A DNA stretch of 64,000 bases from an uncultured Acidobacteriaceae bacterium. Lineage in GTDB: Bacteria; Acidobacteriota; Terriglobia; Terriglobales; Acidobacteriaceae. Under the pieces are notes generated by a model. That model did no database searches. It worked only from the letters and a program-made list of their open reading frames with translations, and was not told where the DNA came from. Location of the stretch: contig CAWIIY010000004.1 of NCBI GenBank assembly GCA_963836295.1, positions 26,962-90,961 of the forward strand. The letters are read 5' to 3'. The position numbers were made by a program, and so were the translations under genes. Shown here piece by piece: positions 40,911-56,421 of the stretch; the stretch's first letter is position 1; each line of letters starts with the position of its first letter.

Positions 40911-42743
40911 GCACTGCGGGCGCGGAGCGGGACTTGCTGCGCTTCTTAACAGCGGGCAGTGTGGACGACGGCAAGTCAACCCTGATTGGCAGGCTGCTTT
41001 ACGATTCCGATGGTATCTACGACGATCAGCTTTCCTCGTTGCGCAAGGCGTCGGCCGCCAAGAACGTCGCACTCGATCTGTCTTTGCTGACGGACGGTTT
41101 GCGGGCCGAGCGCGAGCAAGGTATCACGATCGATGTCGCTTATCGTTATTTCTCCACCCCCCGCCGAAAGTTCATCATAGCCGACGCGCCCGGTCACGAG
41201 CAGTACACGCGCAACATGGCGACCGGGGCCTCGACGTCCGAATTGGCTGTGATCCTGGTGGATGCCCGCAAAGGTGTCTTGCAGCAGACACGCCGACACA
41301 CCCTGATCGCGTCGCTGATGGGTATCCGCCAGATGATCGTGGCCATCAACAAGATGGACTTGGTGGACTTCGACCAGCAGGTGTTTCATTCGATTCGCGA
41401 TCAGTTCGGAGAGTTCCTAAAGTCCCTGCAGGGCGCCGAATTCCATTTCGTGCCTTTGAGTGCGCTTGAGGGCGACAATGTCATCGAGCGCAGCGATCGA
41501 ATGCCATGGTACGAGGGAAAGTCACTGCTGCACCTGCTCGAGACCATTCCTACGGCCGCCCGGCGCGATGGCGGGCTGCGCTTTCCCATCCAGAATGTCG
41601 TTCGCCCCAATCCGGATTTCCGCGGTTATGCCGGGCAGGTAGGGTCAGGCATCGTGAGGCCCGGACAGGAAGTCATTGCCTTGCCCTCGCTGCAGCGCAC
41701 CACAGTCAAAGAGATACTGCTTCATACCAAGACCCTGGAGGAAGCTGGTCCGAGCCAATCGGTCGTGCTGACCACCACTGATCACATCGACCTGGGCAGG
41801 GGCGACATGCTAGTGGCCTCCGACGCGGTTCCTGCGGTGTCGGCGAAAATCACTGCTTACCTGATCTGGCTATCGCACACGCCGCTGCGCAAGAGCACTC
41901 GCTATCTGGTCAAGCACACGACACAGGTGTTATGCGGCAAAGTCAGCCGCCTGAATCACAAAATCGAGATCAATACTTTCGCCAAGCTGGATGCCGACAG
42001 TCTGCATTTCAACGAAATCGGCGAGGTGCCAACTCGACCTGCACAACCCGATTTTCTGCGATCCCTACCAGCACAATCGCAGCACGGGAAGCTTCATTGT
42101 CATCGATCCTTTCAACAACGATACCCTCGCCGCCGGCATGATTGTGGAAGCAACTCCCGACCGTCCCAGCGAAGCAACCGATGGGGCCTATGCCGGCTCT
42201 AGCGTCGCGCGGCAGCAGGGATTGACAGTTTGGTTTACCGGCTTGAGCGCAGCCGGTAAGACAACGATTTGCAGGGCCGTCGCCACCGAGCTTCTGGCCC
42301 ACGGGTTGCAGGTGGAAGTGATTGACGGCGATGTCATCCGCAACTATCTTTGCAAGGATCTTGGTTTCAGTAAGCACGACCGGGACGAAAATATCCGCCG
42401 CATCGCATTCGTGGCGCAGTTGCTGACGCGAAATGGCGCGATCGTTCTCGTCTCGGCGATTTCGCCCTATCGGGCGGCACGCGATGCCGCGCGCCATTCC
42501 ATTGGCGACTTCATGGAGGTTTACGTCAACACTCCCCTCGCCGTGTGCGAGGTGCGCGATCCCAAGGATCTCTACAAGAAGGCACGGGCCGGCGAGATCA
42601 CCGGATTCACCGGCATCGACGACCCCTACGAGCCGCCAATGGGGCCGGAAACTATTTGCAACACCGACCAGGAGAGTACGCGAGAAAGCTCCTCGAAGGT
42701 GGTGGCGGCGGTCCTTCGCTACCTTGCTGCAAAACGCTCTTGA
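40907..42743 (+). CDS. cysNC: Bifunctional sulfate adenylyltransferase subunit 1 / APS kinase, split by a 1-nt frame change
   Basis: TTG 40907 overlaps the cysD stop and has GGGAGGG upstream. GTPase motifs GSVDDGKST, DAPGH, NKMD. An extra C at 42029 (GAG GTG C CAA CTC) joins to the APS-kinase part with P-loop GLSAAGKTT. Confidence 0.85.
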
Positions 42744-42785
42744 ACTGGGGTTGGGCGTTCCGATTCCGACGACGAGTTAGGCGGA

Positions 42786-43592
42786 ATGGTACTGGACTTA
42801 GGCGCAATCGCCGGAAGAGTTGCCGTAGGTCTAGCCGTCGGCGTCCTGGTTGGACTCACTGGACTCGGCGGCGGCATGGTGCTGCTCCCAGTACTGATTT
42901 CTGTCTTGGGCGTTCCACCCATCCTCGCCGTCGGCTCCGATGCCGTTATCAACTGCATTACCAAGATTGGAGCGGGTGGACTGCATTGGCGTCAGGGAAA
43001 CGTCAGTTGGCGACTGGTGCTCAGCCTGACTTACGGCAGCATCCCGGGCGCCATCATTGGAGTGGCCATCCTGACATGGGTGCGTGCGACCTTCGGGAAT
43101 GGGGTCAACGACTTCCTGCGGGCCTCAATCGGGGTCTTGTTGGTCGTCATTCCAGTTGGATACTTGTTCAAGCCGCGCGCTTCCGCTCCTCAGGTTTCTT
43201 TTTCGGTATTGCAGGAGAAAAAGTATTGCTTTGGTGTCACGCTCATCGGATTCTTCGCCGGGATTCTGGTGGGCTTGACCTCCATCGGCTCGGGCAGTGT
43301 CATCCTGGTGCTGCTACTAGTCTTCTACGGTTTTCCGCCCGCCATGCTGGTGGGCACCGACATTATTCATGCCGTTCTGCTGGCAGGGCTGACCGGCTGG
43401 CTTCAGTTCAAGCTCGGCAACGTGGATTTCGTTCTCGTTCTGTGCGTGCTCATGGGTTCTGTCCCAGGAGGCCTCTTGGGCGCTTATCTGGCCAGCCACG
43501 TGTCATCCTCCCGGCTCAAGCAGGTACTCTGCGTGCTGCTCATGGCCGTTGGGGCAAGAATGCTCTGGGGAGTGTTGGTCCATGCTAACTGA
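42786..43592 (+). CDS. TauE/SafE-family anion permease
   Basis: Polytopic membrane protein; GLTGLGGGMVLLPVL and internal repeat GLTSIGSGSV. Confidence 0.8.
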   Translation: MVLDLGAIAGRVAVGLAVGVLVGLTGLGGGMVLLPVLISVLGVPPILAVGSDAVINCITKIGAGGLHWRQGNVSWRLVLSLTYGSIPGAIIGVAILTWVRATFGNGVNDFLRASIGVLLVVIPVGYLFKPRASAPQVSFSVLQEKKYCFGVTLIGFFAGILVGLTSIGSGSVILVLLLVFYGFPPAMLVGTDIIHAVLLAGLTGWLQFKLGNVDFVLVLCVLMGSVPGGLLGAYLASHVSSSRLKQVLCVLLMAVGARMLWGVLVHAN

Positions 43593-44397
43593 GTCTGCGC
43601 AGCGCCAATACCTGGCGCGCATCAAGCGTGCTCTGCAGGCTGCCACCGAGATCGCCAGGCAGTATGCGCCTGGCACGTTTCGCGTGCGCGACAACGGCGG
43701 ACGCAACGTGATCACCGAGGTTGACTGCCGGCTTAGCGAGGTGCTCCGCGGCCACTTACTGCAGCCTGGCGAGGGTTGGCTTTCGGAGGAAGATCCCGAC
43801 GACCAGGCACGGCTGGCTTCCGACATTGTCTGGGTGGTAGATCCCGTAGACGGCACGCGCGAATTCGTCGATGTCATTCCCGAGTGGTGTATCTCGGTGG
43901 GACTCGTCGTGGAGGGAGTGGCTACCGCCGGCGGCACCTGCAATCCGGCCAGCAATGAGTCGTTTTTGGGCTCGCTGGATTGCGGCGTTACGTACAACGG
44001 TCGTCTCGTGCGCGCCGCAACGCGCACAACTTTGGATGGTGCAGTCGTGCTCGCCAGCCGCCAGGAGTGCAAACGCGGAGAGTGGCGGCGCTTCGACCAA
44101 GCTCCCTTCGAGGTTCGACCGATGGGATCCATCGCCTACAAACTCTCCCTTGTTTCTGCGGGACTGGCCGATGCCACGTGGACACTGTCTCCCAAGCACG
44201 AGTGGGATGTGGCCGCTGGAGTCGCGCTGGTCACTTCCGCGGGTGGCCATGTTGCCTGCACCGACAATGCCGCGCCGCGGTTCAATCGCAGCAACACGCT
44301 TGTGGCGAAATTGGTGGCCAGCGGAGAAGCCCTCTGGCCAGAAATCGTTCAATTCATTGAGCGAGATCGAAGTTCGAAGAACCTTGATACAGCCTGA
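43582..44397 (+). CDS. cysQ: Inositol-monophosphatase-family 3'(2'),5'-bisphosphate nucleotidase
   Basis: WLSEED and WVVDPVDGTREF motifs; overlaps the permease by 11 nt. Confidence 0.75.
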   Translation: MLTESAQRQYLARIKRALQAATEIARQYAPGTFRVRDNGGRNVITEVDCRLSEVLRGHLLQPGEGWLSEEDPDDQARLASDIVWVVDPVDGTREFVDVIPEWCISVGLVVEGVATAGGTCNPASNESFLGSLDCGVTYNGRLVRAATRTTLDGAVVLASRQECKRGEWRRFDQAPFEVRPMGSIAYKLSLVSAGLADATWTLSPKHEWDVAAGVALVTSAGGHVACTDNAAPRFNRSNTLVAKLVASGEALWPEIVQFIERDRSSKNLDTA

Positions 44398-44740
44398 ACA
44401 AAAGGGACAAGATGCGCGTCAGCCCGCAACGCATGTAGTTGAAGCTATTGGAGAAACAAGACTTACGGATGATGAGGTACAGGACATTTGAGGCCGATTC
44501 ACCCAAATCAAAAGGCAAGCTAAATCAATGATTTACAGCCACGGTCCTGGCTCCGTACTACCACCTCTCTGGAAAGTTGCCCCGGTATTAGCAACAGATT
44601 GCGATCAAACATGTCCGCCATCCCTGCATGCTTGACATACCGTCATTGCGCGTCCCGAAGCGCCGATGAATAAGCTTCGATCCTGTGCTATAGTCGATAA
44701 TCTGCAGGGTTGGACGCCAGTTTCAGATCCGGAGGAGTTG

Positions 44741-44971
44741 ATGAAGTACCGGCGGAACGTTCTAACTACTTTTGTGGTGTGTGCTTTGTGCCTTGTATTT
44801 GTTACAACCCCGGCTTACGCATACGTCGACCCCAACGCAGTGGGTTTGGCTTCCCAGATACTGACTCCTATCCTGATAGCCGCCGCCGCCGGCGTTACAT
44901 TCCTTAGAAAACGAATCGGAGCTGCTTTCGGCGCATTGGCGCGGCGCCTGCGGCGACGCGCTAATGCCTAG
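44741..44971 (+). CDS. Small membrane protein (76 aa)
   Basis: GGAGGAG lies 4 nt before the ATG. Signal/TM segment, YVDPNAVGLASQILTPILIAAAAGV second TM, Arg-rich tail. Stop overlaps the next start (ATGCCTAG). Confidence 0.45.
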   Translation: MKYRRNVLTTFVVCALCLVFVTTPAYAYVDPNAVGLASQILTPILIAAAAGVTFLRKRIGAAFGALARRLRRRANA

Positions 44972-46925
44972 TCGCGATTTCCGTTCCACGGTCGCGTCGC
45001 TCTGGTTCCGGCTGATCACCCTCGGGATTCTCGGCTTGGCCTTTGCCGAAACGCTCAGTCTGGCACAGGGAGAGGTTCAGGGCTGGACCTTTTATCTCAC
45101 CACTGCTGGGATCGTTTTCGAAGTAGCGGTGCGTCTGATTTTCGCGTCGCTGGCCGGTGTCGCTTTAGGGACCCTCTGTACCGCCGCCCTTGCCCCCTTT
45201 CTCTGGCATTTCAGGTCATCGCGCGAACGAATTGCCGAGTGGGCGACAAAGGTTGGCGTGGTTCTGGTCGTATTCCTGGATTCCAGGTTTGCGTTGACAA
45301 TCCTGATCAATTTGTGGGGGGCTAACCACGGCCCGCGATTTGCGACCACTTTGCTCACAGCCCACTTCCTGGCTTTCGCCGTAGCCCTTTACATTCCTCG
45401 CATCCGGAGACAAGTGGTGACGAGCATCGACGGCTTCATGGGCGAAAAGATGACTCGACGCACCGCTATTGCGACAATCGTCGGCGCTGGTGGTCTAGTG
45501 GCCACGGAATTTGCTCTTAGCAGGACAGCACCCGTGGTAAAGGCAGCGCTGCTTCCGCAGCGGCCAAAATCTAACATCCTGCTGATCACTTTCGACGCCT
45601 TAAGTGCGGAAGATATGTCCCTTTACGGGTATGGGCTGCCGACCACTCCGATGATCGACGCTTTTGCCCGCACGGGTACAGTCTTTAAGAACTTCTATTC
45701 CGCCTCTACCTTCACGACTCCAAGCATAGCGACGCTGCTGACGGGACTCTATCCCTCAGGACACCATGTTTATCAGCTGAGAGGCCACGTGCGGGCGCAG
45801 GACGCCAAGAGGAGCCTGCCGCACGCCATGCGAGCCGCCGGCTACGCCACTGGCGCGTTCTTCTCCAACCCGTATGCATACTATCTCGCGGAGACCATGA
45901 GGAACGAGTTCGATTTCCTGCCGCAGCCAACCTTCCAGCAGGGTGGGTTGCAACATCTGTGGGAGGGCACCAGCTGGCTGCACCAGGATACTAGGATTGG
46001 AAGCCGCATCGACGAATACAACGATTTGATGTATGTCTGGAATTCTCTGGGCCGGTTGCCCTACGTTCTCCCCCTGGAGTTCCGGGCGGCCGAGAGTTTC
46101 GCACAGGCGCGGGAAATGCTCGCCAAATTGCCCGATGGATTTTTCCTGTGGGTCCATGTGATGACACCGCACAACCCCTATCATCCCGATGCGGCAGACC
46201 GGGGACGTTTCATCCCTGACGACCAACTGCGAACATTTGAATTTGAAGGGGACGACGGCTTGCCTCGCTGGTATCCGCATTACAGCCCCGACCAGCAGAG
46301 CCAAGTGAACCAGCGTCGTCTTGCCTACGACGAGTTCGTCGCCACCGCCGATCGCGCCTTCGGGGTCTTCATGTCGGAATTGGAAAACAGCGGAAATTTG
46401 AGGGACACAACGGTCATTGTGTCGGCCGATCATGGGGAAAGTTTTGAGGGCGGCGTCTATCAGCATGAAAGCCGGTATCTGACCCGGCCGGTTATCCACA
46501 TCCCTCTTATCATCCGCACACCCGACCAGCAGGAAGGCCGCATGGTTGCATTTACCGCGGACCAGACAGCGCTCGCACCCACGATTCTCGAGCTCGCCGG
46601 TCAGCCGAAACCTGATTGGATGCCCGGCCAATCGCTTGTGCGGTGGCTGAACAGGGATGGCCAAGGCGAAGGTGAGGGACTGGCGTTCTGCCAGTATCTG
46701 CAGCAGAACAGCGTTTTCAAGCCCCTGCGGGAGGGAACCGTAGGCGTGATCGACGGGCAGTACCAATATGTCCTTGTCCTTTCTACTGGAACGGGTGTGC
46801 TTCGCCGGCTGAACGAAGCGCAGTTCTGGAACCTCGACCGCGCTGCCGAATATCCTGAGCGGGCGGAGGCATTGCGCGCTGTGATCTATTCGCGATTTCC
46901 GAATCTAATGCAAAAATCTACGTGA
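44964..46925 (+). CDS. Polytopic membrane protein with alkaline-phosphatase-superfamily (sulfatase/LtaS/EptA-like) domain
   Basis: About 5 N-terminal TM helices, then ILLITFDALSAEDM, SASTFTTPSIATLLTG (Thr where sulfatases have Cys/Ser) and SADHGESF. Confidence 0.75.
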   Translation: MPSRDFRSTVASLWFRLITLGILGLAFAETLSLAQGEVQGWTFYLTTAGIVFEVAVRLIFASLAGVALGTLCTAALAPFLWHFRSSRERIAEWATKVGVVLVVFLDSRFALTILINLWGANHGPRFATTLLTAHFLAFAVALYIPRIRRQVVTSIDGFMGEKMTRRTAIATIVGAGGLVATEFALSRTAPVVKAALLPQRPKSNILLITFDALSAEDMSLYGYGLPTTPMIDAFARTGTVFKNFYSASTFTTPSIATLLTGLYPSGHHVYQLRGHVRAQDAKRSLPHAMRAAGYATGAFFSNPYAYYLAETMRNEFDFLPQPTFQQGGLQHLWEGTSWLHQDTRIGSRIDEYNDLMYVWNSLGRLPYVLPLEFRAAESFAQAREMLAKLPDGFFLWVHVMTPHNPYHPDAADRGRFIPDDQLRTFEFEGDDGLPRWYPHYSPDQQSQVNQRRLAYDEFVATADRAFGVFMSELENSGNLRDTTVIVSADHGESFEGGVYQHESRYLTRPVIHIPLIIRTPDQQEGRMVAFTADQTALAPTILELAGQPKPDWMPGQSLVRWLNRDGQGEGEGLAFCQYLQQNSVFKPLREGTVGVIDGQYQYVLVLSTGTGVLRRLNEAQFWNLDRAAEYPERAEALRAVIYSRFPNLMQKST

Positions 46926-48025
46926 GCCGACAATATCTGAACCTCACTTCGGGCGCTTGGCGGCAACTTCGCCGGAGCTGGCACCTCCGACCAAGTCCTA
47001 TGCTGCTTTGGCAAACCCTGGCGCCCGGTTCCCTATTCTCCGCGATGGCGGCATTGCAGGAGATGTCCGCTCGCAAGCAACTGGCCCAGGCAAATTACCG
47101 GAACGCCATCGTAATTCTTGGCTACTGGCGTTCCGGCACGACGCTGCTGCACGAGTTACTGTGCCTTGATGCCCGTTACACCTATCCGACGACGCATGCT
47201 TGCATGAACCCTCATCATTTCCTACTCTCGGAAGCCTCGGTCCTGGCTCGCGGAGGTTCCAGCCGGCAGCGGCCGATGGATGAGATGGAGGTTCATGCCG
47301 GTTCGCCGCAGGAGGACGAGTTCGCACTTCTGTCGCTGGGCGCGCGTTCGCCTTACGAAGCGCTTCTGATTCCCAGGATACTGCCGGAGGCCCTGAAGCT
47401 CACCGACCCTCGAGACCTTTCATCGCGAGATGAAGAGCGCTGGCGCGAGGTTTTCCTGAGTTTTCTCGCGGGTGTATCGGTGCGGGGAATGGGCCGGCCC
47501 ATGATCCTGAAATCGCCGACGCACGGCTGTCGCGTCGCCATTGTTCGCGAACTGCTTCCGGATGCGCGCTTCGTGGTGATCGTGCGCGACCCTTGGACCA
47601 GCTTCGAATCGGTGGTCCGAATGTGGCGCAAAATGTTTGAAACGTACGCCATTGGATCGATACTGCCAGATGACGATATCCGCGAAGCGATTATCGCCGA
47701 TCGGCCCCGCTTTGAGGCGAAGCTGGCCTCCAGTACCGCCGATCTGCCCACGAACCGATTCATGACGATAACCTACGAGTCTCTAATTGCTAATCCAGCC
47801 GAGGTGATCGAACAGCTCTACGATCGGCTGGAACTCGGAGATTTCAACACAATGCGTGAGGCGGTCATCGCCGAGACGAAACGCCGCCGTGGATACCAGG
47901 CGAAGGGCACCTTGCCGTCGGACTTATGGCGACAGCGAATTAGTAATGAGTGGGCGGCGATTCTAACGCATCATGCAAATTTACGGCAACGCGCGTTCTC
48001 TCTGCCGGAAGGGGCTCCGGGCTAA
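46922..48025 (+). CDS. Sulfotransferase-family protein
   Basis: 5'-PSB-like GYWRSGTTLLHELL and 3'-PB-like KSPTH...VVIVRDP. GTG overlaps the previous stop (GTGA). Confidence 0.75.
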   Translation: MSRQYLNLTSGAWRQLRRSWHLRPSPMLLWQTLAPGSLFSAMAALQEMSARKQLAQANYRNAIVILGYWRSGTTLLHELLCLDARYTYPTTHACMNPHHFLLSEASVLARGGSSRQRPMDEMEVHAGSPQEDEFALLSLGARSPYEALLIPRILPEALKLTDPRDLSSRDEERWREVFLSFLAGVSVRGMGRPMILKSPTHGCRVAIVRELLPDARFVVIVRDPWTSFESVVRMWRKMFETYAIGSILPDDDIREAIIADRPRFEAKLASSTADLPTNRFMTITYESLIANPAEVIEQLYDRLELGDFNTMREAVIAETKRRRGYQAKGTLPSDLWRQRISNEWAAILTHHANLRQRAFSLPEGAPG

Positions 48026-48217: not shown

Positions 48218-48667
48218 TTAATGTGGAGTATCACCAGACGGTGAGGGCGTGTCTGGACTTTCATTTTTCTTGGAGTGGTGGAACGGCTTAGCAATCAGCT
48301 TTCCGGTACCTTTGGCGATCTTGCCGGTACCCTTGGCCGTGCCTACCCCGATATCCTTGCCGGCATCTCCAGCACCTTTGCCGACGTTCTCGGCCGCGCG
48401 AGCAGGATGCAGCGTCACCAGGTCGCCGGTCCTTTACCCACGCCCTCGGCAGCCTTGCCCGCGCCCTCGCCTCCGCCTTTGCCGATATCACCGCTGCCCC
48501 TGCCGATATCACCGCCGGCGCTTGTGCCCCTTGGGTGGGGTTGTGGGCTTGGATTGGGTGGTCTGGGGCTGCGTGGCCGGCACTTGAGTCTGGGGAGAAT
48601 TCTGAGCGTGAGCGACAAGGCCAAACGCCAACGCCGCCAGAAACAGCAATGCGACAGGATTTCTCAT
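48218..48667 (-). CDS. Secreted Gly/Lys-rich low-complexity protein read in three pieces (two frame changes)
   Basis: ATG 48667 has GAGG upstream and gives MRNPVALLFLAALAFGLVAHA...TTPPKG. It continues as ...GDIGRGSGDIGKGGGEGAGKAAEGVGKG (ORF 48415..48624), then ENVGKGAGDAGKDIGVGTAKGTGKIAKGTGK... (ORF 48218..48418). The first and third pieces share a frame. Confidence 0.45.
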
Positions 48668-50008: not shown

Positions 50009-50503
50009 TTACCCTCCAGAGATCGCCCCCACGGCAATATCGATCATGTCCCCATCGGATATCGGCAGCGCGCTAAACGCGCTCGCAGGAATTACCTCGT
50101 TGTTGACCGCTACAATGAAATGGTTGATGTTCCGGTTCCGAAAGGTCTTAGCAAGACATTCTTCGCGCCATTTCGTTAGGAGAGATTCCAGAGTGTTAAT
50201 CTCCCAAACATATTCGTGTGTATTGATGCGCACCCTCTTTAGCTTCGTTTCGTATATACGAGCAGGGCTCATAACTTCGCCGTGTTCTTTTTCCACTGGC
50301 AATCCGAGCTTTTCTCTTCGTTTATTGGCACAGTTGAAGCACAGTGCCCCATCATTGACCGCCCGGCCGATGTACAACGATGCTGCCGCGGTCCACGGCC
50401 GCACCTGGGAAGCATTCTGCGGAAGCGTCTGACCCCCGCAATCCACACACTTCAGGAAATGTTTCCGGGTGTTACGTAGCATGATGGAGGGAGATTCACT
50501 CAT
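50009..50503 (-). CDS. Zinc-ribbon + ThiS/MoaD-like beta-grasp protein ending in Gly-Gly
   Basis: CVDCG...CFNCANK (four Cys). C-terminus FIVAVNNEVIPASAFSALPISDGDMIDIAVGAISGG-stop. Confidence 0.7.
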   Translation of the reverse strand: MSESPSIMLRNTRKHFLKCVDCGGQTLPQNASQVRPWTAAASLYIGRAVNDGALCFNCANKRREKLGLPVEKEHGEVMSPARIYETKLKRVRINTHEYVWEINTLESLLTKWREECLAKTFRNRNINHFIVAVNNEVIPASAFSALPISDGDMIDIAVGAISGG

Positions 50504-51029
50504 GGCATCTCATCCTAGTGCGCGCCCCCCGGCCGATCACAATGGAAATCTGGTCGCCATCCGAGATCAGCACAGAGCTGAAGGCGTCTGCGGGAATCAC
50601 TCGGTCGTTTACGGCGACACGCCACCACCTGCTATCTGCTTTCTTGTACTCGTCATAGAAATACTGATCTTTCCATTTCTCGATGACGGATTCCAACGTG
50701 GTGACGTTCCAAGTGTATTCCCACTGATTGACGCGTATTGTCTTGAGAGTCGACTCATTTGAAGAAGCGAGAACTGGACGCTCCGACTCCCTGTTCAAAG
50801 TATGACCGTTATCCTGTTCTAGAGGCAGGCTGAGCGGCGCCCTGCGCTTATTCGCACAAGTAAAGCAGAGCGCTCCGTCATTGACAGCCCCGCTGATATA
50901 CAACGACGCTGCCGCGGTCCAGGGCCGCTCGTTGGAAGCATTCTGCGGAAGCGTCTGACAGCCGCAGTCAACACACTTCAGAAAATGTTTACGCGTGTTA
51001 CGAAGTGATGTGGGTGGACGTTGACTCAT
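50496..51029 (-). CDS. Paralogous zinc-ribbon + ThiS/MoaD-like protein (C-terminus ambiguous at a G6 run)
   Basis: Same N-terminal module (CVDCG...CFTCANK). C-terminus RVAVNDRVIPADAFSSVLISDGDQISIVIGRG... passes through the homopolymer at 50525-50530. Confidence 0.65.
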   Translation of the reverse strand: MSQRPPTSLRNTRKHFLKCVDCGCQTLPQNASNERPWTAAASLYISGAVNDGALCFTCANKRRAPLSLPLEQDNGHTLNRESERPVLASSNESTLKTIRVNQWEYTWNVTTLESVIEKWKDQYFYDEYKKADSRWWRVAVNDRVIPADAFSSVLISDGDQISIVIGRGARTRMRCHE

Positions 51030-51047: not shown

Positions 51048-53415
51048 TTACATCGCAGCAACCATGCGTTTGATCAGCGCTTTTATTTCCTGCTTCTTGT
51101 AGCCGTTGTCCTTCATTGCGCAGCATCCATGCAGAGCAGCATCAGCGGCCTTTTCAGCCAGTTCAGTCGAGGGTTTCTGGCCGATAAGTAGGCACTCGGC
51201 TTCTTCCCTGCGAAGCGGAACAGGCGCGACTCCACCCAGGACGAGTCTTACGTCCTTGGTCACGCCGTCTTCTAGTTTGTAGACGTAGGCCAAGCTGGCG
51301 ATAGCAAAATCGATCGATTTGCGGACACGGAATTTGTCGTACTTCATGGTGTAGCCTTGCGGCACGGCGAAGCGGATCGCTGTCACCAGTTCGTCCTGGT
51401 CGAGCATATCTTTCACTGCCAGTCTGGTAGTGAAGAGGTTGGCTGCATCGACAACCCTCTTCGTGGTGACGATCTGGGCATCCAGCGCTATCAGCACGGG
51501 AGAAATATCCGAGGCGTTGACAGAGTAGCAGCCGCAGTTCATGCAGCGAGCCGCTTCCGCCAGGCACTCTTCCGTTGTGATCGTGGAGCTGTCTTCTTTA
51601 TCAAGTGCGCGCTCGCTGACGGAAAGCTCCTTATCCCCATCCCCGATCGCTTCTGCTTTCTTCGCGCCTTCGGGATCGAACTTCAGAAAGCCGTTTTGCA
51701 CGTGCGGCTCGGGCGCACCTCCGCCAAGCTCCTGGTTTATCGCCTCGGCAGCGTTGCGTCCGGTACGGATGGCCATGATTACCGTGGAGGAGCCGGTGAC
51801 AACATCGCCACCGGCGAAGACGCCGCTGCGGCTGGTTCGTCTGAGTGCATGGCTCGACCTTGATGAGTCCCCGGTTTAGCGCGAGTTTGTACTTCTCCTC
51901 GATAAAGGAGAGGTCTACCTTCTGACCGGCAGCCAGCAGCACGGAGTCGCAATCCACAGTGATCTTGGAATGGCGATCGTATTGTGGAGCGAATCGGTGT
52001 TCCGCATCGAAGACCGAGGTGCAGGTCACGAGTTCCATGCCACGAACTTTTTCGCTTTCATAGATCAGACGCGAAACGCCGTAGCCATTCCTGATAACGA
52101 TGCCTTCTTCTACGGCGCGGGCAATTTCTTCCGCGCTGGCAGGCATTTCCCACGCCTGTTCAAGGCAAGCCAGGGTCACCGACTTCGCGCCAAGGCGTTT
52201 CGCGGTGATTGCGACGTCCATGGCCACGTTGCCGCCGCCGACGACCAGCACGTTGTTGCGCTGCTTCTTGTTAATCCAGAGACTGACTTCTCTGAGGAAA
52301 TCCAGACCGAATTCAGTGAACTCCTCGCCGTCGAAACCGAGCGCCGGACGCTTCCACGCGCCCGTAGCGTAGAACACCTTGTCGTAGGAAGCTTCGAGCT
52401 CTGCCGTAGTGACGTCCTTGCCGACACTAATGTTTGTCTGGAATGTGACGCCCATTTCTTTGTAAGCGTCGATGACGTTCTTTACGTAGTGCTTGGGCAG
52501 ACGGTAGGCAGGGATAGCATAGGTCAACATGCCACCTGGCTCTTCCATTTTGTCGATGACGGTGACGGTGTGTCCTGCTTTGCGCAGGTAGTACGCAGCA
52601 GAAAGGCCTGCCGGACCTCCACCGACGAGGGCAATTTTTTTGCCCGTCTCAGTTTTCGGCGCCGCATAGAAGATCTCGAGATTCTCAAGGATATAGTCAC
52701 CAATGACCCGCTCAACTGCGTGAACGGAAACAGACTGATCCGTTGTCCTGCGGTTGCAGCCATCCTGGCAGAAGTGGGCGCAGACACGCGAAGTGATCAT
52801 CGGGAGTGGGTTCGCCTGCATCAGGATGGCCGCGGCTCCCTTCAGGTCCCCAGCGCGCAGCTTTTCCATGTAACCAGGGATATTCGTGTTCCCTGGGCAG
52901 CTCACCGTGCAAGGCGTGGCGGCGGCCTTCATGCCGCCGAAGATGGAGTGATAGCGGTTATCGCCGCGGATTGCATAACACTCATCTCCGCCCTTGCGCA
53001 TGCAGTCGTAACGGTCACCGATCTCATGGGGATAGCGGTAGAACCAGCAGCGAACATCCTGGCAGATATTGCCGCCGATCGTGGCAAGATTACGTATGAT
53101 CGGCGTAGCCACGGAATAAGCGGCCTCGGCCAACATCGGAACTTCGGCCTTGATCGTCTCCGATTCGGCGATCGTCACCAGCCGCGTCAGGGCGCCGATC
53201 TCGATCTGCCCGTTTTCGCACTTGATGTAATCCGCACCTTCGATCCCCTTCAGGCTGATGACCGTTTCCGGGTAGTCTTTGAGTAGTCTGCCCTTGAGGA
53301 CGCCCAGCAGGTCGGTGCCGCCGGCCATTACCACGGTTTTCCCTTTTGCGCTCTCCTGCATTGCGGCGGCGCAGTTTGCGAATGATTCAGCTCGCGCGTA
53401 CTCGAACCGTTTCAT
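51048..53415 (-). CDS. Chimeric flavoprotein subunit: CoxM/XdhB-type FAD-binding domain + GltD-like [4Fe-4S]/NAD(P)H module + CO-dehydrogenase-flavoprotein C-terminal domain (1-nt frame change at 51825)
   Basis: MAGGTDLL and ATIGGNI; then CPGNTNIP...SRVCAHFCQDGC, KIALVGGGPAGLSAAYYL, VLVVGGGNVAMD. The extra base at 51825 joins to GVFAGGDVVTGSSTVIMAIRTGRNAA... (ORF 51048..51776), ending with LVTAIRF...DFAIASLA...VLGGVAPVPLR. Confidence 0.75.
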
Positions 53416-53428
53416 GATGAATCCTTCC

Positions 53429-55751
53429 TTAAGCCTTGCCGAGGGCGTTAAGTACAACAGGCGGGGTTGCGGGATATTCCTTGATGTCAGCACCGATTGC
53501 GTTTGAGATCGCCATTAACGCCGCACTCGCCAGCGCGGCACCGGAAATCTCACCGATACCAAGTGCTTTGAACATGAAGGTGTCGATCTGCGACTCCATC
53601 ACGAAGCCGTCGTAGGGTGGGATTTCATTGAAGGTCATTCCACTTGTAGTCGATCATGCTGCTCGCGAGCAGGCGACCCGTGGAGGGATCGAGGTTGCAG
53701 TCCTCAAAGATCGCGGTATCGAGGCAGGCAGAACCGATGCCGCCGTGGAGCTGCATTTCGAGTGTTTTCGAGTCGATGATCTGACCGATATCAGTGCCAC
53801 CAGCCAGCTTGAGAATCTCGGAGTGACCCGTTTCCAGGTCAACCTCAACTTCAACGAACACCGCGATACAGCTTGGGCAATCGAATTTCTCAACGTGCTT
53901 GCCGTAACCAACGATGGAAAGCTCTCTGTCGGCCAGCCTGCTGACTGAAATTTTGATCTCCGGCGTGTCGCGCACGAAGACGACCATGTCTCTCATGTCG
54001 AGTTGGTCTACGGGGCGATCCAGCTTAATGGAAGCAATCTCCATCGCCTTCTTCTTCGCGTCCAAAGCAGCCTCGCTCACCGCCTTGCCTATGGTGATGG
54101 TGCCGCGAGACCCGCACAAGCCGAAGTTAGAGGGGTTGTTCCGGCTGCCAGGATCGGTGATCGAGACCCACTCATAGGGGCAGTTCAGCACTTCCGCGAC
54201 GACCTTGCAGGCGTTGCTCCTCTGCCCCATGCCGGATTCGGTGATGTCGCACTCGACAATGACAGATGAACCTCCACCGCCGACGTTCGATACGTCCAGA
54301 TCGGGAATGATACGGACGATCGCTTCGGTGTTGTCTTCCTGAATGTCGCAGTTGCCGATGACGCCCATGCCCACGCCGCGAGCCTTGGTGCCGTTGACGG
54401 ACGTCGGCTTGAGCCATCCCTTCCACTTTTCGGACCAGCCGAACCGGTCGGCGGCTGCCTGCATGACCTCCGGGAAGAACAACGAGGAACGGCTCTTATA
54501 AACGCGGCCGTCACGCCAGATGTATTTATCGCCAGGGGAGACGTAGTTCTTCTTGAAGACGTCGAGGGGGTTGAAATTACCTTCCCGCATAATCGCGCAC
54601 AGCAGTTTCTCAAGGCAGCTATTCAGTTCCTGACCACCGTACCCGCGGACGATCCCAGCCTGCTGGCGGTTGGTGACGGCAATATGGCTGTCGAGAAACC
54701 AGTTCTCGCACTTGGCGAGCACGAGCTGAGCTTCGCCCAGACCTACGCCGATCTGACCCTGGGTCGAGTTGCAGACGCAACCGACATCGACCAGCCAGTC
54801 GCCTTTAACGGCGGTGACGATACCTTCCTTATTCGCGGCCATCGTGGCTTTGATCGTGCTGCCCAAGCGGACTTCATAGGTCATGAGCTGTTCGGCTTTG
54901 CTCAATACGACCTTGACCGGCCGTTTCGTTACATTCGCCAGCATGGCGGCGGAAACGGCGGCGTTCAGCATCGTCTGCTTGTTACCGTAGCTTCCACCAA
55001 CGTTGAACGTGTTCACGTCAATCACTGCGCCCGGCACGTAGGCCTGCATCAAGAGCTTCATGATGTGCGAGCTCTGCGAGGATGCCCACACCGTATAGTG
55101 CGTCCCGCCGTCGTACCGGGCGATCACCGACGGTGTCTCCGGAGCTGCCGGGCACGGCATCCTTGAAAATTCGATCTTGTCGTCTGCGACAAAGTCGGCT
55201 TCGGCGATGGCCTTGTCGGGATCTCCTCTCTTGACCTGCCAGAAGGGCCCATCCGGCTGGAAGTAGGGGCAACCGGGGTCCACCAGGTTGCCGGGAAAGC
55301 GTTCGTATAACTGTGGAGCGCCTGGCTTAAGGGCGTCCTCTGCCGTAAAAACAGCCGCAAGCTGCTCGTACTCGACCGTGATCAGATCAACGGCCGCTTC
55401 GGCGATCTCCATTGTGTCGGCAGCAACGATCGCTATTTGGTCGCCCACATGAAAGGCCTTCGATTCCAAAACGCGCCGGTGTACCGGCCAACCGAGAGCT
55501 GCCAGGAACGGCGCGTTTTCGTGGGTGATGACCGCGCGGACGCCTTCCAGCGCTTCCGCCGCGGAGGTGTCGATCTTCACGATTTTGGCGTGCGGGTAAG
55601 GACTCCGCTTCGTCCTTCCGTACAACATCTGCGAAAGCGAGAAGTCGTCCAGAAAGCGCGCTTTGCCGGTGACGATGTCGCGGGCTTCTTTTCGAGGTGA
55701 GTATTTGCCGATGTGACGATAATTCGGCTGTCTAACATCGCGGTATTTCAT
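53429..55751 (-). CDS. Molybdopterin-binding large subunit of a xanthine dehydrogenase/aldehyde oxidase-family hydroxylase (1-nt frame change at 53639)
   Basis: N-terminal a/b-hammerhead pattern (IGKYSPRKEARDIVTGKARFLDD...YGRTKRSPYPHAKI). The C-terminal 69 aa (...FKALGIGEISGAALASAALMAISNAIG...) sit in ORF 53429..53638 after one extra base. Confidence 0.85.
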
Positions 55752-55767: not shown

Positions 55768-56421
55768 CTAATCGAGCGAATGCTTGCAAATATGTCCGGT
55801 CGCGTAAGGACTGGGATACAGTTCCTGTCGAATCGGAATCGGGTCCTCGGCCAGATCATTGGCCCGGACGATCGTCGAGAGTTCCGCGTCCGTGTTGCCC
55901 GCGAGTTTGTTCAAGGCTCTCAAGACTGTGTAGTGGCTGATGCAGCGGCAGAAATTGCCGGCAAGAGCTTCCTTGATCTCATCCGGCGTCGGCTGGGCCT
56001 TCTTCAGGAAGAGAGCTTTCGCGACCATGATGATGCCCGGGGTGCAGAAGCCGCACTGGAAAGCGTATTCATCGATAAATGCCTGCTGGATCGGATCAAG
56101 ACCCTTCCTGGCATCTTCCAGTCCCTCTATAGTGGTGATGTTCCTACCGTCCATTTCGACCGTCAGCGTCATGCAGGCGGCAATAGCATCTCCGTCGGCA
56201 ATGACGGCACAGCAACCACAGGCACCGGCTCCACACGATTCCTTCGAGCCGGTCAACTGCAGCCGTTTGCGAAGTGTTTCAAGGAGTGTTTCGGAGGGCG
56301 AAATGTCGCCCGCGCCATCGCCGACAGAGAACTTGTATCTTCTGTCGTTTATGTTCAGGGTAATCGATTCAGGCGTAACTAATTTGCTGCTGTTTTGAGA
56401 AACCACACCGCTCGTGACCAT
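55768..56421 (-). CDS. [2Fe-2S]-binding small subunit (CoxS/XdhC-iron-sulfur type) with N- and C-terminal extensions
   Basis: CGAGACGCC and CGFCTPG...NFCRC motifs; AAGGAAG lies 6 nt before the ATG. Confidence 0.85.
   Translation of the reverse strand: MVTSGVVSQNSSKLVTPESITLNINDRRYKFSVGDGAGDISPSETLLETLRKRLQLTGSKESCGAGACGCCAVIADGDAIAACMTLTVEMDGRNITTIEGLEDARKGLDPIQQAFIDEYAFQCGFCTPGIIMVAKALFLKKAQPTPDEIKEALAGNFCRCISHYTVLRALNKLAGNTDAELSTIVRANDLAEDPIPIRQELYPSPYATGHICKHSLD

Follow-up and report, generated by a model that had tools for sequence, protein, structure and literature searches.

I analyzed a 64,000-nucleotide stretch of DNA (hereafter, the window) from an uncultured Acidobacteriaceae bacterium (contig CAWIIY010000004.1 of assembly GCA_963836295.1), and found that a gene on its minus strand (51048..53415) encodes a 788-amino-acid (aa) fusion protein. 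In this protein, the FAD (flavin adenine dinucleotide) subunit of a molybdenum enzyme, of the CoxM/HcrB type, encloses a nested GltD/NfnB-type iron-sulfur flavoprotein module of about 470 residues (about aa 162-631). Together with a [2Fe-2S] protein (F) and a molybdenum protein (O), this C subunit would form an F-O-C heterotrimer within the xanthine oxidase (XO) family, of the Uxd/4-hydroxybenzoyl-CoA reductase (abbreviated 4-HBCR) type. I consider it fairly likely that the heterotrimer is a reductive dehydroxylase driven by reduced nicotinamide adenine dinucleotide (NADH), possibly with an aryl-coenzyme A (CoA) substrate. My confidence is high for three points taken by themselves: the architecture, the placement in this family, and the reading of a frame break in the gene as an artefact. 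The architecture is widespread and has already been described for one characterized enzyme, a gut urolithin dehydroxylase (2025).

The gene starts with the ATG at 53415 and ends with the stop codon at 51050-51048. In the window as given, it is covered by two open reading frames (ORFs), 51631..53493 and 51048..51776, both on the minus strand and one frame apart. The frame from the ATG is open for 525 codons; a one-base slip follows between '...KVEPCTQ' and 'TSRSGVFAGGD...', and the sequence goes on in the +1 frame. With one base deleted, an uninterrupted 788-aa protein is obtained (the bridged translation), not one of ~815 aa as estimated in a preliminary description of the locus. All of the motifs quoted in that description are found in the bridged protein, and Pfam confirmed the domain order that it had proposed, namely a single gene for a molybdenum-hydroxylase FAD subunit split by a complete GltD-like Fe-S/NAD(P)H module. 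From the N-terminus, and all on the minus strand, the protein consists of the following parts. The N-terminal part of the xanthine dehydrogenase (XDH)-type FAD-binding domain, with AGGTDL and TIGGNI, lies at aa 3-119 (53059..53409; Pfam FAD_binding_5, E 8e-27, profile positions 2-113 of 170 only). The HcrB-type Cys loop, with C118, C123, C138, and C146, follows at aa 118-161 (52933..53064), aligned to residues 114-159 of 4-HBCR beta. The helical Fe-S domain Fer4_20 at aa 166-244 (52684..52920; E 4e-19), with C169, C173, C212, C216, and C220, was recognized both by Pfam and in alignments with StnC, NfnB, and GltD. The Pyr_redox_2 domains at aa 260-552 (51759..52638; E 5e-37), with GGGPAGL, GGGNVAMD, and C417-L418-E419, are predicted to bind FAD and NAD(P)H. 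A linker and the closing Cys motif R-C624-M-N-C627-G-C629-Y at aa 553-631 (51522..51758) were delimited by alignment with StnC-type proteins and HcrB. The rest of the FAD-binding domain (aa 632-697) and CO_deh_flav_C (aa 698-784, E 2e-13) complete the protein (51063..51521).

A canonical XdhB or CoxM protein has FAD_binding_5 and CO_deh_flav_C contiguous within ~290 aa, an arrangement that the C subunit does not have. Instead, ~510 residues are inserted after FAD_binding_5 profile position 113, before the rest of the domain. Residues 632-782 match positions 121-276 of the glyceraldehyde dehydrogenase beta profile, and residues 635-785 match residues 117-272 of PDB 4zoh_B. These matches show that aa 632-697 are the remaining third of the FAD_binding_5 fold. 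Thus, the module splits the FAD-binding domain itself and not just the junction of two domains.

The insertion point was located by comparison with 4-HBCR. HcrCAB of Thauera aromatica (PDB 1RM6/1SB3) is a three-subunit XO-family enzyme like the window enzyme. It is said, after work by Unciuleac et al. in 2004, to be a reductive dehydroxylase with inverted electron flow, and Cys122, Cys138, Cys146, and Cys155 of HcrB are reportedly, from the same work, the ligands of a [4Fe-4S] cluster. Residues 13-159 of the C subunit are colinear with residues 13-159 of 4-HBCR beta (1rm6_B), including the loop after GGN(I/L)CQD, which aligns residue for residue ('GGNICQDVRCWFYRYPHEIGDRYDCMRKGGDECYAI' in the C subunit, 'GGNLCQDTRCTFYNQSEWWRSGNGYCLKYKGDKCHVI' in 4-HBCR beta). 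At the C-terminal junction, 'C629-YSVNASDISPVLIALDA' of the C subunit is aligned with 'C155-YATYHGDVAPALMVLDA' of HcrB, with C629-YSVNASD opposite C155-YATYHGD. Judging from these alignments, the module is nested between the third and the fourth Cys of an HcrB-type [4Fe-4S] loop. The Fe-S insertion of 4-HBCR, to which attention had already been drawn, is therefore a literal counterpart: the HcrB Cys loop is kept and the module is nested inside it. HcrB is a protein of 324 aa that receives its electrons from a separate ferredoxin, whereas the loop of the window protein holds a ~470-aa module with predicted FAD, nicotinamide, and two [4Fe-4S] sites. The window proteins scored far below the NCBIfam equivalog cut-offs for 4-HBCR in all three subunits (alpha, 241.9 vs 994.55; beta, 139.6 vs 404.55; gamma, 130.6 vs 257.8).

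Is this loop conserved? Relatives of the fusion protein were retrieved by peptide patterns from one genome per GTDB species, which gave 364 loci; the taxonomy and the gene order were counted in the best 80 of the 364 loci, and conservation was assessed in an alignment of 81 C subunits. The four cysteines that align with the HcrB cysteines, C123, C138, C146, and C629, are invariant in the 81 sequences. Altogether, twelve Cys are invariant (118, 123, 138, 146, 169, 173, 212, 216, 220, 624, 627, and 629), a number that would suffice for three [4Fe-4S] clusters. Plausibly, C123, C138, C146, and C629 bind the HcrB-type cluster, C624, C627, C169, and C173 bind one cluster of the module, and C212, C216, and C220, with C118 or a non-Cys ligand, bind the other. 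Both Rossmann motifs (GxGPAGL and GGGNVAMD) and the FAD motifs of the XDH type (AGGTDL and TIGGN) are also conserved in the 81 C subunits.

The module has the Fer4_20 domain and the two-Rossmann Pyr_redox_2 domain that mark GltD and NfnB. It shares PCxxxCP, RVCxxxCxxxC, and the two Rossmann motifs with NfnB, the N-terminal domain of StnC, and GltD (4ylf_B, 5jca_L, 8oh5_C, 9bov_A, and 2vdc_G), but it is embedded in another flavoprotein domain, whereas the NfnB/GltD-type subunits are free-standing. Over the whole of residues 167-631, the module can be aligned with NfnB and with proteins of the StnC type (E 1e-90 to 1e-56). The best match is the StnC-type protein 9bov_A (E 7e-91), and 8oh5_C, 9n5u_A (deposited as 'NfnA'), and the NfnB proteins 4ylf_B and 5jca_L are also among these matches; GltD is a weaker match (about 5e-52). 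The motif 'EA-RCxxCGC' follows the flavin domains in the C subunit as in StnC-type proteins, while it is N-terminal in NfnB and GltD. The module stays below all NCBIfam cut-offs (best, PRK12771, 422 vs 516; gltA, 269 vs 472).

These relatives raise the question of flavin-based bifurcation, in which one low-potential electron of NAD(P)H would pass along the Fe-S chain to the molybdenum and the other to a second acceptor of higher potential. Such a reaction would provide the low potential that 4-HBCR draws from ferredoxin. The closest solved relatives of the module (StnC 8oh5_C, NfnB 4ylf_B and 5jca_L, and the 'NfnA' of 9n5u) all come from bifurcating complexes, and they outscore GltD (E 1e-90 to 1e-56 vs 1e-52). 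On the other hand, by Pfam, NCBIfam, and the examined loci, the operon has no equivalent of the partner NfnA with its [2Fe-2S]/FAD branch, and the nicotinamide-site motif is unlike that of all of the bifurcating relatives. In addition, the same module is used for plain linear electron transfer in GltD and dihydropyrimidine dehydrogenase. Bifurcation is hence improbable in my view, and I give as little weight to the wider idea that the whole family might be a self-contained bifurcating or potential-boosting Mo dehydroxylase, in which the NfnB-type FAD would split the electron pair of NADH. If it were true, Birch-like, low-potential aryl dehydroxylation could proceed without ferredoxin, and a clade of relatives associated with CoA ligase genes (see below), the window enzyme included, would be an NADH-dependent substitute for 4-HBCR in fermentative and soil anaerobes.

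In five of the five aligned solved relatives that depend on the phosphorylated nucleotide NADPH, Tyr-Arg-Arg follows the second Rossmann strand and forms the site for the 2'-phosphate. The window protein has Cys417-Leu418-Glu419 there instead. By the usual Rossmann-fold rule, this replacement would favor NADH over NADPH, and it suggests that the C subunit uses NADH. Glu419 is present in 77 of the 81 C subunits; the remaining four have Phe-Arg-Lys at the presumed 2'-phosphate site (positions 417-419 of the window protein) and may be NADPH-specific variants. As for the direct wiring to NAD(P)(H) that had been proposed for this enzyme, a module with a nicotinamide site is indeed present, although its nucleotide site looks to be of the NADH type and not of the NADPH type of GltD.

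The frame break stems from an error of sequencing or assembly and is not biological. An intact 788-aa protein (P0124) is 787/788 identical to the bridged translation. It is encoded on a contig of another assembly (locus L003; GCA_052915845.1) which aligns with window positions 59663-41047 at 99.9% identity over 18.6 kb, with 13 mismatches and 6 gaps. At the shift site, where the intact copy has CAGAGGACCAGC, the window has CAGACGAACCAGC; it thus carries an additional A (51836) and one substituted base (51839). This is a GGACC site (51836..51839, with no strand specified; CAGACGAACC in the window and CAGAGGACC in the intact copy). GGWCC motifs make up less than 1% of the aligned bases, but they hold all six indels and nine of the 13 difference events (binomial probability ~4e-16), and nine of the 35 GGWCC sites are discordant between the two contigs (58343, 53637-53638, 51836-51839, 51791-51792, 48525-48527, 48430, 46308, 42186, and 42028). 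The sole amino-acid difference, Pro542 to Ser, also lies in a GGTCC site, and the residue is invariant among 28 homologues. The Mo-subunit gene is broken likewise, by an extra T at 53637 and a substitution at 53638 with a false stop at 53625; L003 and E. bolteae have a 773-aa ORF, while in the window the ORF is 744 aa long and begins within the gene upstream. Thus, the earlier proposal of bridging one extra base holds insofar as the gene is one continuous gene in the intact copy; the extra base is at 51836 with the adjoining substitution at 51839, not at 51825, and since the shift is a motif-linked assembly error, there is nothing biological to bridge.

One might object that the break is genuine, the gene being either a pseudogene or split into an N-terminal FAD/GltD protein and a separate CO_deh_flav_C protein. 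The shift and the stop are both present in the window sequence as given, and the gene caller split the fusion into products of 594 aa and 164 aa on the 300-kb contig. Against this stand the independent contig with its intact ORF, the concentration of the indels and other differences in GGWCC motifs, which is hardly due to chance, the changes at residues that are invariant among homologues, such as Pro542, the neighboring Mo gene broken by the same type of error, and the continuous frame in 81 of the 81 homologues examined. A real break is accordingly very improbable, and that the window is the erroneous copy is well supported by these comparisons. The pattern resembles that expected of base-calling errors at a methylated motif, which would be the cause. 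In practice, the GGWCC-linked errors create false pseudogenes in the window assembly, and other apparent frameshifts and pseudogenes in the window are therefore suspect.

What is the function of the enzyme? According to Pidgeon et al. (2025, NPJ Biofilms Microbiomes, PMC12658268), expression of uxdFOC in C. sporogenes confers urolithin 10-position dehydroxylation. The same paper describes UxdC as having additional domains, 4Fe-4S and FAD/NAD(P), and a predicted pair of FADs; AlphaFold3 places the two FADs at opposite ends of UxdC, and the authors propose 4Fe-4S shuttling between them. For the UxdC sequence, I used a locus of the E. asparagiformis DSM 15981 genome (L064), in which genes for a 2Fe-2S protein, a Mo protein (758 aa), and a fusion protein (~805 aa) are preceded, 2.5 kb upstream, by a UcdO-like gene. 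This locus matches the description of the published uxdFOC locus of Enterocloster asparagiformis. The four Pfam domains of the window C subunit recur in UxdC, nested in identical order; the two proteins share 51% of residues along 807 aligned positions (800 bits), and the Cys motifs and CLE are conserved. The Uxd operon also has the same order of the 2Fe-2S, Mo, and extended-FAD genes, and UxdO and UxdF are 43% and 53% identical to the window O and F subunits, respectively. The suggestion made in the preliminary description that the enzyme may run reductively fits this published homologue (PMC12658268). In contrast, the host of Uxd is a gut Lachnospiraceae species while the window derives from a soil-type Acidobacteriota metagenome-assembled genome (MAG) assigned to Candidatus Korobacteraceae, and the downstream genes differ: two ThiS-like genes in the window, a methyltransferase gene and a regulator gene at the Uxd locus, and CoA-activation genes in E. 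bolteae. With only 43% identity between UxdO and the O subunit of the window, the substrate of the window enzyme is probably not a urolithin.

By sequence identity, the window enzyme is much closer to an E. bolteae operon than to Uxd (C, 65%; O, 70.5%; F, 66.5%). By its position and identity, this operon matches the 'E. bolteae uxd homolog' of the paper, which calls its endogenous substrate and function currently unknown and reports that this homologue, which is equally distant, does not carry out 10-position dehydroxylation (PMC12658268). Another comparison concerned the urolithin C 9-dehydroxylase UcdCFO/Ucdh, a reductive phenol dehydroxylase of the XO family whose lysate activity is stimulated by NAD(P)H (PMC11760930; PMC12771579). 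Its FAD subunit is canonical and short, with neither the 4Fe-4S loop nor a GltD module, its gene order is C-F-O, and the UcdO-like protein is 26% identical to the window O subunit. UcdCFO was rejected as a match for the window enzyme on account of the canonical FAD subunit. The analogy to E. coli YgfK/YgfM/XdhD, with a GltD-like feeder of a Mo enzyme, was dropped; YgfK has been shown to act on its own as an NADPH:2,8-dioxopurine reductase, and DOPDH makes no use of NAD(P)H (bioRxiv 10.1101/2025.04.24.650524). A literature search for a CoA-linked gut dehydroxylase of the XDH family or a 4-HBCR-GltD fusion found no further characterized member.

In the proposed mechanism, the enzyme would carry its own pyridine-nucleotide donor module. 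Electrons would pass from NADH to the module FAD, the two [4Fe-4S] clusters of the module, and the HcrB-type [4Fe-4S] cluster, and from there to the XDH-type FAD, the two [2Fe-2S] clusters in F, the Mo-pterin (molybdopterin cytosine dinucleotide, MCD) in O, and the substrate. Running reductively, the enzyme would take a hydroxyl group off an aromatic or heteroaromatic substrate. The reverse direction has to be considered as well. The enzyme might be an oxidative hydroxylase or dehydrogenase of the xanthine, nicotinate, or aldehyde type, with the module as an electron exit that reduces NAD+ and stands in for the NAD+ site missing from canonical FAD subunits of the CoxM type. GltD and NfnB modules work in both directions, FAD subunits with a [4Fe-4S] loop are known in oxidative aldehyde oxidoreductases, the position of the CO dehydrogenase active-site Glu is kept in the O-subunit alignment (GIGE), and the O subunit scores 274 bits with XdhA and comparably with CO dehydrogenase, against 242 bits with 4-HBCR alpha. 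Nevertheless, 4-HBCR is the best match among solved sequences for the O and C subunits alike, and UxdFOC, the sole characterized enzyme of this subunit architecture, dehydroxylates reductively (PMC12658268). Moreover, in the nearest clade the operon is accompanied by genes for CoA ligase, CoA-transferase, and thioesterase, which is what a dehydroxylation assisted by a thioester would call for. I regard an oxidative enzyme as unlikely and the reductive dehydroxylase as the better reading.

Several points weigh against the reductive, NADH-driven dehydroxylase. The window protein and its closest clade are so far known as sequences. Given the 43% identity to UxdO, the substrate and even the reaction type may differ from those of Uxd. 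The [4Fe-4S] loop is also found in the FAD subunits of oxidative aldehyde oxidoreductases (matches to PaoB 5g5g_B and to 5y6q_B), and the loop therefore does not set the catalytic direction. The preference for NADH is based on a single motif, and the invariance of the Cys is partly circular, as four of the twelve lie within the peptide patterns that retrieved the loci. An AlphaFold2 model made from a 28-sequence alignment was poor (mean predicted local distance difference test score (pLDDT) 66, predicted template modeling score (pTM) 0.50, Fe-S regions below 50) and hence gives no geometric backing to the proposed electron chain. Finally, CoA-activation genes are absent from the window and from its Acidobacteriota and Actinomycetota relatives, which have two ThiS-like genes instead.

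The protein database search with the fusion gave thousands of matches, and the counts given here rest on the 120 best listed. All of these 120 have the same Pfam domains, and nearly all are intact proteins of 785-790 aa; the E. bolteae fusion protein occurs on at least 1000 contigs. Clustering of the fusion proteins at 50% gave roughly 30 full-length clusters. The best 80 of the 364 loci belong to Acidobacteriota, Actinomycetota, many Clostridia, Negativicutes, Synergistaceae, Coriobacteriales, Chloroflexota, and one Myxococcota MAG; several fusion paralogues per genome are common among them, and the 2Fe-2S, Mo, and fusion genes stand in the F-O-C order in 76 of the 80. The preliminary description had named, as one outcome that would refute it, an architecture that proves common and already characterized, and this is largely the case: there are 364 loci in species representatives and hundreds of intact proteins of 786-790 aa, and one member is functionally characterized. 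As side observations, Gemmiger, Hungatella, Acutalibacter, and one Lachnospiraceae MAG have, after the fusion gene, another GltD-like gene that stands free and encodes about 520-565 aa (loci L054, L059, L060, L072, L077, L079, L080, and L083; at about 10.4-12.2 kb in each). The representative of one 50% cluster, P0137 (1730 aa), contains the whole fusion at residues 906-1723 and may be a further fusion with a Mo subunit.

In Clostridia and Synergistaceae, a TetR gene precedes the F-O-C genes, and genes for a major facilitator superfamily (MFS) transporter, a CoA ligase, a family-I CoA-transferase, and a 4HBT thioesterase follow (loci L006-L015, L018-L026, L032, L041, L073, and L081; for example, L001 12532-17896). 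By its gene content, this cassette looks like a complete set for the uptake, activation, dehydroxylation, and release of an acid. The E. bolteae operon has TetR, an MFS transporter, a 697-aa AMP-forming ligase, a CoA-transferase, a 4HBT thioesterase, and MCD/molybdenum cofactor (Moco) genes, and the same set recurs, with few exceptions, in the ten loci from Clostridia and Synergistaceae that are closest to the window protein. These neighbors point to a CoA-activated acid as the substrate in the clade, and for the window enzyme these operons suggest a CoA-activated aromatic acid.

Few reductive dehydroxylases of the XO family are known, those characterized being 4-HBCR, Ucd/Ucdh, Uxd, and DOPDH, and their electron supply is little understood. 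The fusion family would represent a hard-wired supply, with a predicted pyridine-nucleotide-oxidizing Fe-S flavoprotein inside the FAD subunit's [4Fe-4S] loop. To this family the window contributes a member from Acidobacteriota, whose catalytic subunit is ~70% identical to its counterpart in the E. bolteae 'uxd homolog'. With this identity, a very prevalent gut operon and a soil operon probably share one substrate question. The available text of PMC12658268 contains no mention of where exactly in the HcrB loop the module is inserted, of the invariance of twelve Cys, three clusters' worth, or of the NADH-type CLE that replaces YRR.

The F and O genes precede the fusion gene on its own strand, immediately upstream of it, in line with the three-subunit complex named in the preliminary description, and Pfam confirmed their identity. 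The F subunit (55768..56421, minus strand, 217 aa) is of the CoxS/HcrC/UxdF type with two predicted [2Fe-2S] clusters (Pfam Fer2_2, 4e-26, and Fer2); its NCBIfam matches to pucE, XdhC, and 4-HBCR gamma are all under their cut-offs. The O subunit (53429..55751, minus strand, 773 aa when intact) is the molybdopterin (MCD-type) catalytic subunit with Pfam Ald_Xan_dh_C, MoCoBD_1, and MoCoBD_2. Its closest solved sequence is 4-HBCR alpha (1rm6_A, 3.5e-42), narrowly above the large subunits of CO dehydrogenase. Promoter and terminator scans gave nothing beyond the shuffled expectation, and a search of the 64-kb window for homologues of CoA ligase, CoA-transferase, thioesterase, MFS, TetR, and MocA found none.

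Directly downstream of the C gene lies a gene for a 177-aa protein with weak ThiS matches (50496..51029, minus strand), possibly a member of the operon, followed by a gene for a 164-aa protein that ends in Gly-Gly (50009..50503, minus strand; from its sequence). The two proteins are tandem paralogues (55% identical), and both have a Zn-ribbon-like N-terminus with CxxC...CxxC and a ThiS/MoaD-like C-terminus. The family has only 84 members, all unnamed or called ThiS, and shares contigs with the closest homologues of the C subunit; it accompanies the Acidobacteriota-type clade of the Mo enzyme, and the ThiS-like genes are retained downstream in L004 and L005. These proteins may serve as sulfur carriers dedicated to the maturation of the cofactor. 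The operon also adjoins a sulfation-related cluster on the plus strand (about 41000-48025), which is probably unrelated to the Mo enzyme. By the Pfam assignments of the syntenic L003, the cluster contains a sulfatase gene (44964-46925) and a sulfotransferase gene (47000-48025), with TauE, inositol-phosphatase-like, and CysN/adenosine phosphosulfate (APS)-kinase genes upstream of both.

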